DNA of 64,000 bases from Promethearchaeota archaeon (lineage in GTDB: Archaea; Asgardarchaeota; Lokiarchaeia; Sigyniarchaeales; SOKP01). A program made the translations under genes and the position numbers. The stretch is from contig JAUVNS010000007.1 of NCBI GenBank assembly GCA_030599585.1, positions 192,001 through 256,000 of the forward strand. Reading direction: 5' to 3'. How positions within the stretch are numbered: position 1 is the stretch's first letter; each line of letters begins with the position of its first letter. The notes beneath the pieces are model-generated. The model had not been told where the DNA came from. It did no database searches and worked only from the letters and a program-made list of their open reading frames with translations. Below are positions 59,076 to 61,908 of the stretch, piece after piece.

Positions 59076-60119
59076 TTATAAGTTGACAAGGCAATATTCT
59101 ACAAATTTTAATGGTTCTAAAGCACAACCACCTGAATCCAATCCACCGAGTTGTACTAGTAATTCCTTGTCAATTTCATTTCCATGAAGCCATAAATCCT
59201 TCAAAACCATTAAAGATTCTAAACCTCTTATAACTTTAATAAAATTATTCCCTAGATCTAGGGTTTCTAAATTTTGGAGGGTTTCTAAACCTTTAATTGA
59301 CGAAATTATATTGCTAGATAAAAATAGTTTATTTAATTTAGTTAATGGATATAAACCACTAATTTCAGAGATTTTATTATCTTTCAAGTTAAGAACTTGC
59401 AAGTTTTTACATTTTTCAAGCTTTTTGATTTTTTCAATTTGGTTTGCTGTTATCCACAGCGTATTTAATTCAGTAAGGGCTTCTAAACCTTTGATTTCTT
59501 GTATTTTATTATCATTAAGATACATTTCACTTAAATTTTTTAAGTGATCAAGTCCCTGTATCTCAGAAATTTGATTTCCCGCTAAATTTAGAACTTTTAA
59601 TTTATTTAACTTATCCAATCCTTGGATTTTTGTAAGCTGATTTCCTGCTATCCACAAAACTTCTAAATTCTCCAAACTATCGAAATCTTCGATTTTTTCA
59701 ATCATATTCCAAGATAAATCTAATTTCTGAAGCGAGCTTAAAGAATCTAAACCTTTTAAATGAGTTATTTGATTAGCTCTTAAATAAAGTTCTTCTAAAT
59801 TAGATAAATGATCAAGGCCATTAATTTCGGTAATCTGATTAGACGCTAGATGCAGAACTTTTAAATTTGTTAAATCTTCCAACCCAGATATTTTGACTAA
59901 GTTATTACTTCCACAATTAAGAATTTCTAAATTTTTAAGCTCTTCTAAGCCTTGTATTTCGATAATTTCGTTGGAACTCAGCTCTAAATGTTTGATATCA
60001 CGTTTATTTAATCCCTTAATGTTAGTAATATTTTCAATTTCAAGCAGACCAAGGTCTAAAAATCCGTCTTTAACTTCGTATTTTTCGCCCTTGTATTCCA
60101 CAGTTTCCATATATAGCAC
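59076..60119 (-). CDS. SDS22-like leucine-rich repeat protein (alternative start 60110)
   Basis: About 12 tandem 22-aa LxxLxxLxLxxNxIxxIxGL repeats. Confidence 0.92.
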   Translation of the reverse strand: MLYMETVEYKGEKYEVKDGFLDLGLLEIENITNIKGLNKRDIKHLELSSNEIIEIQGLEELKNLEILNCGSNNLVKISGLEDLTNLKVLHLASNQITEINGLDHLSNLEELYLRANQITHLKGLDSLSSLQKLDLSWNMIEKIEDFDSLENLEVLWIAGNQLTKIQGLDKLNKLKVLNLAGNQISEIQGLDHLKNLSEMYLNDNKIQEIKGLEALTELNTLWITANQIEKIKKLEKCKNLQVLNLKDNKISEISGLYPLTKLNKLFLSSNIISSIKGLETLQNLETLDLGNNFIKVIRGLESLMVLKDLWLHGNEIDKELLVQLGGLDSGGCALEPLKFVEYCLVNL

Positions 60120-60300
60120 TTGATATTATAATTCGGTATTAAAATAATATGATATATCTGAGAATTATTATAAATTCTTTAAAATATATAGTTTTACCTT
60201 AAATTCCTAGCTTTTTTAAATATTAGTCAAGGCTATTATCCACCTATATCTTATAAATTGAAGCTTTAAAACGAATTGAGTGCTTTATTAAGTGATTACA

Positions 60301-60414
60301 ATGATATTTTGTCTTAATTGTAGAACAAAAGCTAGTGGCTCAAAAGAAGGCTACTATTATTGTCACATATGTGAAAAATTTACTAAGTTCTTTACACTAA
60401 GATTTAAGTGATAG
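60301..60414 (+). CDS. Zinc-finger microprotein, candidate selenoprotein with C-terminal Sec: MIFCLNCRTKASGSKEGYYYCHICEKFTKFFTLRFK-U-*
   Basis: GTGAT RBS-like motif; CxxC-x13-CxxC; TGA at 60409 then TAG at 60412; the TGA aligns to a Cys of paralog 61756-61908; SECIS-like 3' UTR. Confidence 0.72.
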
Positions 60415-60434
60415 GGAGCTTGGGTTATACTAAA

Positions 60435-60521
60435 ATGAATTACCCTTTGAAGAATGAAACAAATATAAAAAATTATAGATGTTTGTTGACAACCCCCGCT
60501 AGGGTTTTATAGGGTAACGAT
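60435..60521 (+). promoter_or_regulatory. SECIS-like element(s): two nested AUGA...GA cores
   Basis: Inner AUGAA-ACAAAUAU-[AAAAAAUUAUAG]-AUGUUUGU-UGAC (60454-60490); outer AUGAA-UUACCCU...AGGGUAA-CGAU (60435-60521); side hairpin AACCC/GGGUU. Confidence 0.68.
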
Positions 60522-61517
60522 TCAAATTTTTTTAATTAGATTTTTGTAGTCTCCAATATATAAATAGGATTCAATATTTTCGTCCATATTCCTTATCTCA
60601 TCAATTTCCAATGAAAACTCTTCAGGAGAAATCTCTTTTCTGTAGATTAATTTTCTCGCTAAATTGTAGTATTTCTCGTAAACTTCTACAGGAGCAAAAT
60701 TTTTTAATTTCGAACTAAAAGAATACAGATTCGAGTAAACTTCTTTAAAATCACCTCCTATTAGCCTCCTTTCTCCTAAAGTATTTGAGCTTACTTTTAA
60801 CGATTCCTTGACTCGATTTAAATAAAATTTCAATCGTATCTTCTGGTCATCGATTTCATTAGCTATAATTTTTTTCTTTTTTTGGTACTCTAAAAAGAAT
60901 TGTTCATCTTCAAGCTTGTCTGAGATTTGTAGGATTACCTTACATAAGGCAAATTTTTGTAACATATTTTTTTCTTTAAGAAGTGCATTCACTATAATTG
61001 TTCTCTCGTTTTCTAACTCTTTTCTTTCTTCTCTTAGTTGTTTTGAAATCTTGCCTCTCTGATCCCATATAGATTTTAATAAACCTATCTGCTTTTCAAT
61101 TAATACATTAGGATCTAATATTTTTTGATGGGAAAGTATGATGTTATTAATTTCTTTATCAAATTTTTCGAAATCTTCAGATTTGACAGCGTTAACTAAG
61201 AATAACTCTTTATAATTTAAAATGATCCTTTTTAGTTTTAAGCTTAACTTTTGAATTTCTTTTTTATCATCTTCTTCAGCAATTATTACTAAATCAATGT
61301 TGACCTCTGATATCCTAAATATTGAAGCTATTAAAGTTCCCAATCCAATTGTATTTAATTCCTCTCTACCATTATTTGCCATGCCTGAAATAAATGATCT
61401 TATTGCAGCTAAAAAAGAACCAAATAGGTCCATGTTAAAATCAATATCTACTTGGACCTCTTTCTCGTAAAGTAATTCTCCTGATTCCATATGGTAAAGA
61501 AATAAAAAGTAAAGCAT
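60522..61517 (-). CDS. Longin-like domain protein with a helical/coiled-coil C-terminus
   Basis: LFLYHMESGELLYEKE..MDLFGSFLAAIRSF..LNTIGLG..DLVIIAEEDD. Confidence 0.78.
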   Translation of the reverse strand: MLYFLFLYHMESGELLYEKEVQVDIDFNMDLFGSFLAAIRSFISGMANNGREELNTIGLGTLIASIFRISEVNIDLVIIAEEDDKKEIQKLSLKLKRIILNYKELFLVNAVKSEDFEKFDKEINNIILSHQKILDPNVLIEKQIGLLKSIWDQRGKISKQLREERKELENERTIIVNALLKEKNMLQKFALCKVILQISDKLEDEQFFLEYQKKKKIIANEIDDQKIRLKFYLNRVKESLKVSSNTLGERRLIGGDFKEVYSNLYSFSSKLKNFAPVEVYEKYYNLARKLIYRKEISPEEFSLEIDEIRNMDENIESYLYIGDYKNLIKKI

Positions 61518-61755: not shown

Positions 61756-61908
61756 ATGAATGCTGTCGCTTGCAAAGAATGTGGTTATTCTTTTGAAGAT
61801 AAGGAACCTGGAAAATATTATTGCCCTAATTGCTCCAAAGAAATGAAATTCATGAAGATTGAAGCTTTTTGTGGCGCGAAACCAGGAGAACTTTACGCGA
61901 AAGAATAA
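61756..61908 (+). CDS. Zinc-finger microprotein, Cys-containing paralog of 60301-60414
   Basis: MNAVACKECGYSFEDKEPGKYYCPNCSKEMKFMKIEAFCGAKPGELYAKE; TATA-like TTTTATAA at 61726-61733, 22 nt upstream, suggests a leaderless start at 61756 rather than 61669. Confidence 0.78.
   Translation: MNAVACKECGYSFEDKEPGKYYCPNCSKEMKFMKIEAFCGAKPGELYAKE

Follow-up and report, generated by a model that had tools for sequence, protein, structure and literature searches.

A Lokiarchaeal zinc-ribbon gene of 37 codons, its final UGA very likely read as selenocysteine

Does the UGA codon that closes a very small reading frame in this Lokiarchaeal genome end the protein, or does it add selenocysteine (Sec) as a last residue before the UAG that comes next? 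The frame lies in a window of 64,000 nucleotides (C26:192001-256000), by which we mean the whole stretch of DNA that was analysed, in an assembly of 4.85 Mb with 32.6% G+C. The initial annotation, made from sequence alone, had proposed that this UGA encodes Sec as the final residue, and that proposal is supported by the comparisons reported here, selenium incorporation being inferred. We conclude that the 37-codon gene very likely represents an unreported selenoprotein, a tiny zinc ribbon with a terminal Sec. The insertion of selenium is deduced from comparative evidence, without any experiment.

The coding sequence occupies 60301..60411 of the forward strand. From its ATG at 60301 it encodes 36 residues, MIFCLNCRTKASGSKEGYYYCHICEKFTKFFTLRFK, in which Cys4, Cys7, Cys21 and Cys24 are arranged with CxxC-x13-CxxC spacing. 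Codon 37, the UGA at 60409..60411 (+), would be read as Sec, and the true stop would be the UAG at 60412..60414 (+). Downstream on the same strand, paralogue A (61756..61908) encodes a 50-residue zinc ribbon that terminates with TAA and has no SECIS. It aligns with the first protein without gaps, shares its CxxC-x13-CxxC spacing and carries a Cys 13 residues past the last zinc Cys, in the context ..EAFCGAKPGELY.., that is, at the Sec column. The initial annotation had described the frame, the TGA TAG ending, the spacing and the gap-free paralogue with Cys at the UGA column, and all these details were confirmed. A possible TATA box, TTATAAAT at 60251..60258 (+), about 43 nt upstream of the ATG, is kept in close relatives, and a run of seven T at 60527..60533 (+) may be an archaeal transcription terminator; both assignments are inferred, the latter from the sequence only.

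Six-frame searches of 161 genomes of the class showed that the family is confined to the window's own family of genera. Outside it, these searches returned a single match, weak and partial, inside a 646-residue ORF. The strains in culture seem to be members of a different family. Forty-six orthologues, from six genera of this one family, have the Sec form, with identities to the window's protein that fall to about 42% within the genus and lower in other genera, and 46/46 end in K-TGA-TAA/TAG. After the long ORFs of this genome TGA is the stop in 12.7% of cases and TAA in 70%, and about 8% of the TGA stops have a tandem second stop. Five more orthologues, one in genus g27 and four in g28, have the Cys form: they end in K-TGT followed directly by TAA or TAG (5/5), with the same length and ending, so that start codon and length are constant in 51 copies (46 Sec-form and 5 Cys-form). 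The finding of UAA or UAG at codon 37 as often as UGA would have refuted the reading as Sec, and this is not what is observed, as UGA is found in 46 copies, UGU in 5 and UAA or UAG in none. A SECIS element is present in 46/46 Sec-form copies, 33-55 nt from the UGA in 45 of them and about 150 nt away in one, whereas none (0/5) was found behind the Cys forms. The covariation of UGA versus Cys with the hairpin is thus perfect, and the two forms are shown by comparison to be a classical Cys/Sec orthologue pair that covaries with SECIS presence. The genomes with Cys forms still use Sec, because their next gene encodes PrxL with an in-frame UGA.

The lokiSECIS core is located at 60454..60489 (+). 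It consists of AUGA (60454-57), a 9-bp stem (60458-66 with 60479-87) enclosing a loop (60467-78), and GA (60488-89), so that its layout reads AUGA, AACAAAUAU, AAAAAAUUAUAG (the 12-nt loop), AUGUUUGUU, GA. The lokiSECIS consensus of Mariotti et al. 2016 (PMC4989117) comprises AUGA, a 9-bp stem, an 11-nt loop and GA (rarely AA), with adenines first in the loop and G last, usually as AG. Among 45 copies from our orthologues the 5' flank is AUGA in 44 and GUGA in one, and the 3' flank is GA in 42 and AA in three; the 46th copy (L058) has AUGA and GA. The stem measures 9 bp in every copy. The loop starts A-rich and ends in AG; most copies have 11 nt there, but the window and the relatives closest to it have 12.

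Scoring with covariance models gave a concordant result. Model R2 was built from six SECIS elements of this genome (two of PrxL, one of HdrA and three of HdrA-VhuD) and run with filters off over the whole 64-kb window, that is, 128 kb of strand. The hairpin passed this check as the only significant match, at 60446-60493, with 35.9 bits and an E value of about 1e-6, the next best reaching 15.4 bits. Reciprocally, model R1, built from the SECIS of the orthologues with the window's copy left out, retrieved the PrxL, HdrA and HdrA-VhuD elements in a genome search. RNAalifold predicts the SECIS stem unaided. A covariation analysis on a 44-sequence alignment, with slid controls and 500 shuffles, found 89.9% of the stem cells paired versus 29-46% in the slid controls, with 9/9 stem pairs changed on both sides and 0/500 shuffles reaching the observed covariation score. 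By its flanks, its stem and loop, its covariance-model scores and its compensatory changes, 60454-60489 is a lokiSECIS of the canonical class. Since one SECIS-model match in 128 kb falls together with a TGA-TAA/TAG ending kept in 46/46 copies, the observation lies far beyond chance. Rfam, searched up to E 10, assigned no SECIS family to the region and returned only a chance snoRNA-like match at 60440-60517.

Two AUGA sequences beginning 23 and 42 nt after the UGA had been pointed out in the initial annotation, and both are present (60435 and 60454); the conserved SECIS is the inner hairpin only. The outer AUGA...GA was considered as a second, nested SECIS and rejected, because most relatives lack its 3' GA; the outer stem itself is real. 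In unconstrained folds of the window and of most orthologues, the whole structure (60440..60517, +) is a three-way junction formed by the outer stem P1 (60440-46 with 60511-17), the SECIS hairpin and a small G+C hairpin, P3 (60491-60506). P1 is conserved with compensatory changes, and the sequences of P1 and P3 differ between clades. The window's SECIS begins about 45 nt after the UGA (its AUGA 42 nt after), and about 28 nt separate the UGA from the base of the folded structure. The same three-way layout was observed behind the canonical VhuD, PrxL and HdrA genes of this genome (G000:C26:75941-75987(-), C26:110503, C26:120346, C24:310377 and C50:64901), with the G+C hairpin starting right after GAC. 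No description of it was found in the relevant parts of the 2016 and 2024 lokiSECIS papers.

The host genome contains two SelD genes with in-frame UGA, one of them read through as ..KIYGUSCK... Its HdrA and VhuD genes have two to four Sec codons each, its PrxL genes encode UxxC or UxxU, and a SECIS follows each of these genes. Also present are a PSTK-like gene (122 bits) and, separated by 5 kb, a SepSecS-family gene (377 bits) and an EFSec-like gene, whose 231.7 bits come from the N-terminal half of the SelB model. A tRNA-Sec was not found in the assembly by Rfam RF01852, by Aragorn with introns or by a scan near the EFSec and SepSecS genes. The best RF01852 match, with 30 bits, is a tRNA-Leu and not a tRNA-Sec; an Aragorn tRNA-SeC call with a 1245-nt intron had no Rfam support and was treated as false; and the scan, over 30 kb around the EFSec and SepSecS genes, yielded only an intron-bearing class II tRNA. 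A 31-nt T-loop intron interrupts the published Loki tRNA-Sec, which standard tools miss (PMC4989117). As observations on the tRNA set itself, a class II tRNA at G000:C28:27647-27746 (L147:7647-7746) has a 20-nt intron in its anticodon loop, and Aragorn detects only 17-21 tRNAs genome-wide, which suggests that many intron-bearing tRNAs are missed. The use of Sec by this host is supported by its SelD, HdrA/VhuD, PrxL, EFSec-like, SepSecS-family and PSTK-like genes, with tRNA-Sec not found.

Further information about the protein was obtained from the orthologue alignment. M1, C4, C7, G17, C21, C24, K26, K36 and codon 37 are invariant in 29 aligned orthologues, variability is highest at third codon positions (0.36 vs 0.15-0.22) and orthologue pairs accumulate 3629 synonymous codon differences. 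We read the invariance of the four Cys, G17, K26 and K36, together with the third-position variability, as the coding signature of a real protein gene, a reading that is very likely as part of the selenoprotein interpretation as a whole. AlphaFold, run on the alignment, predicts a three-stranded sheet (strands 2-4, 17-21 and 26-32; mean pLDDT 83) with a C-terminal tail of lower confidence. That residues 1-36 fold as a zinc ribbon with four cysteines is an inference from this three-stranded model and the two CxxC knuckles, and the metal content is likewise inferred. Fold matches of the model are weak and all of them are zinc ribbons (bL33, Rpb12 and the USP finger); Foldseek against the PDB gave no match at E <= 0.001. 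Neither Pfam nor NCBIfam has a family that matches the protein, NCBIfam not even at E 10. The KCU-star model (NF033934) does not match it, nor does the NF041197 HMM, and a genome search with NF041197 also misses the locus. In a protein atlas the 36-residue form gave generic zinc-ribbon leads, all below 0.9, and among the 1.84 billion protein representatives of a library there are only about ten small relatives, none of them named and each truncated at the UGA.

Gene neighbourhood offers an indication of function. Of about 22 orthologue loci outside the window's genus, about 13, spread over at least four genera (L048-L052, L063 and L064 among them), have PrxL directly downstream of the gene on the same strand, and this set comprises all five Cys forms. 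PrxL is a selenoprotein of the AhpC/TSA thioredoxin fold (AhpC/TSA, 77.8 bits). As the gene precedes PrxL in about 13 loci, we favour a partnership of selenol/thiol exchange between the two proteins; this is inferred from gene neighbourhood only, and it could as well prove wrong as right. In the window's genus the gene is not beside PrxL, but has moved beside a leucine-rich-repeat (LRR) gene, and thus the functional link rests on the other genera. The functions suggested in the initial annotation, a redox or metal sensor or a selenium carrier, remain guesses, and the neighbourhood points more specifically to PrxL.

Within the window, the divergent LRR neighbour encodes a protein of 347 residues (59076-60119, -) and is kept in 36 loci, while a 331-residue protein without Pfam family (60522-61517, -) lies between the Sec gene and the paralogue in 14 loci. 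One or two zinc-ribbon paralogues follow the gene in this genus. At most loci of the genus paralogue A follows on the same strand after 0.3-1.4 kb, and the second type has Asp at the Sec column. The paralogues are about 30% identical to the Sec protein and have an extra conserved tail of 11 residues. Regarding the names under which related sequences are filed, the AlaX-like protein encoded on DATKTW010000040.1 (L091) is 88% identical to that of the window; this contig, deposited as 'Candidatus Nanopelagicaceae bacterium', is likely Lokiarchaeal and mis-binned. Some close relatives carry the label Hermodarchaeota or Hodarchaeota.

According to the mechanism that we propose, codon 37 would be recoded to Sec by the eukaryote-like lokiSECIS about 45 nt downstream in the 3' UTR, and translation would end at the adjacent UAG. 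The product would end in a short tail (..RFK-Sec) bearing a reactive selenol. Its likeliest job would be selenol/thiol exchange with the thioredoxin-fold selenoprotein PrxL (UxxC), an inference from gene neighbourhood only, and the zinc-ribbon protein might be the reductant or the resolving partner of PrxL. It is possible that a 36-residue product ending at the UGA coexists with the 37-residue form. As to RNA evidence for the locus, none of the listed data sets that contain the sequence is recorded as RNA. Three runs that carry an RNA-Seq label, but are flagged as probably DNA, contributed one short contig each, covering 60229-60494; one of these contigs extends a further 74 nt with a relative's sequence, and none spans the flanking genes. 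These three contigs, being probably DNA, are at most a weak hint that the gene may be expressed.

It could be objected that the UGA is a plain stop of a 36-residue zinc ribbon and that the hairpin is a SECIS-like kink-turn serving L7Ae binding, mRNA stability or termination. In favour of this view, Mariotti et al. 2016 (PMC4989117) argued that UGAs near a lokiSECIS are not decoded and act as stops, a minimum distance being needed, and the present family has its SECIS core a mere 33-55 nt from the UGA. This short distance runs against the published expectation and is a caveat to our reading, although the roughly 28 nt to the base of the structure may possibly let the SECIS stay folded with the UGA in the A site, as we infer. 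Against a plain stop, five orthologues have Cys at exactly codon 37 with a stop right after it and without the hairpin; TGA is used in 46/46 Sec-form copies though TAA makes up 70% of stops, and the second stop is always immediate; and covariance models group the element with the SECIS behind canonical selenoprotein genes. We therefore consider a plain stop very unlikely. That the region is a non-coding RNA or a spurious small ORF, its conservation coming from the RNA, can be all but excluded. The ORF is indeed very short and has no Pfam or NCBIfam match, but the four Cys, G17, K26 and K36 do not vary while third positions vary most, synonymous differences are abundant, start and length are fixed across the 51 copies, and AlphaFold gives a confident zinc-ribbon-like sheet.

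Another alternative accepts the selenoprotein and concerns its role. The Sec protein and paralogue A could back each other up according to selenium supply, as the Sec/Cys isoenzymes of Methanococcus do, and not be partners of PrxL. Paralogue A does keep Cys at the aligned column and does follow closely in most loci of the genus. However, true Cys orthologues of the same length and ending exist elsewhere, and there are no regulatory data. Because paralogue A is divergent and tailed and its sister paralogue has Asp, we regard a backup pair as unlikely, and as less likely than the PrxL partnership, which remains our preferred reading.

The recoding mechanism itself is already known. The Lokiarchaeal selenoprotein genes described so far (HdrA-VhuD, VhuU/FrhA, PrxL and SelD; PMC4989117; Huang et al. 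2024, PMC11227280) employ the same recoding system and SECIS class, with the SECIS likewise just past the stop and, in the set from this genome, the three-way junction in common. The 2024 survey (PMC11227280), which relied on homology to known selenoproteins, lists seven Asgard families and a 2026 review adds none. Our gene differs from these seven in that it encodes an unrelated protein of 37 residues, with Sec last and a UGA 33-55 nt from the SECIS. Predictions of a C-terminal Sec with a UGA-UAG double stop have so far concerned bacterial proteins only, namely SaoC (of the CC-COOH family) and KCU-star (NF033934) (Haft preprint, 10.1101/2022.07.06.499078). In these families Sec is also the last residue, aligned to a terminal Cys in homologues, the UGA directly precedes the true stop, and annotation pipelines miss the genes; however, they are bacterial, with a bacterial-type SECIS, another fold and another lineage, and no sequence relationship to our protein was found. 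The bacterial family NF041197 (CxxC_Se_CxxC; OS_HP3) is likewise small with two CxxC motifs and one Sec, but its name places Sec between the motifs and not at the C-terminus. Archaeal zinc-ribbon micro-proteins of the HVO_2753 type, bL33 and Rpb12 resemble our protein in having two CxxC about 13 residues apart and, as far as its model goes, a three-stranded sheet, yet they have no Sec and show no significant sequence or fold match. A zinc-ribbon or C-terminal-Sec archaeal selenoprotein is not mentioned in the Asgard surveys and reviews of 2016, 2024 and 2026 that were consulted, nor in our full-text searches. To our knowledge there is no smaller archaeal selenoprotein, nor an earlier archaeal one with Sec as its final residue. 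The novelty lies in the protein family, in an archaeal Sec placed at the terminus, in how closely the SECIS follows the UGA, and in how tiny the protein is.

At least two other candidates for small selenoproteins, unannotated and with a SECIS of this type, emerge from sequence comparison within this genome. One, at G000:C21:176540-176792 (L078:792-1044), would encode 67 residues with two predicted TM helices and the motif ..LA-U-GNR.., without Pfam family; a lokiSECIS lies 16 nt after its stop, and 5/5 copies, counting four homologues (three in the same genus and one in another), keep the in-frame TGA and the SECIS. The other, at G000:C34:226586-226821 (L074:1309-1544), would encode about 64 residues with one TM helix and the motif ..EETGGG-U-PSTC.., also without Pfam family; its lokiSECIS comes right after the TGA stop, and exactly one in-frame TGA is found in 24/24 genus copies with identity down to 29%. 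A SECIS-model match at G000:C40:117293-117339 (L072; 37 bits, E about 4e-4) has no obvious Sec ORF upstream and may be a further hidden selenoprotein gene or a false positive. It is tempting to propose, as a bolder and joint reading for which we see as much against as in favour, that Lokiarchaeia possess a hidden set of tiny lineage-specific selenoproteins, with at least three families here, overlooked by homology-based surveys; that the zinc ribbon is a dedicated selenol partner of PrxL; and that the eukaryote-like lokiSECIS, placed only 33-55 nt behind a UGA, suffices to have it read as the final sense codon.

In summary, our results indicate that there are lineage-specific selenoprotein families, which a search starting from the SECIS can reveal, and that annotation pipelines truncate or miss such proteins. 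At 37 residues and with a natural Cys variant, this protein lends itself readily to synthesis, to the determination of its structure and to redox assays with PrxL. The spacing of 33-55 nt bears on how far a lokiSECIS must sit from the codon it recodes, a question that matters for the origin of the eukaryotic Sec system.
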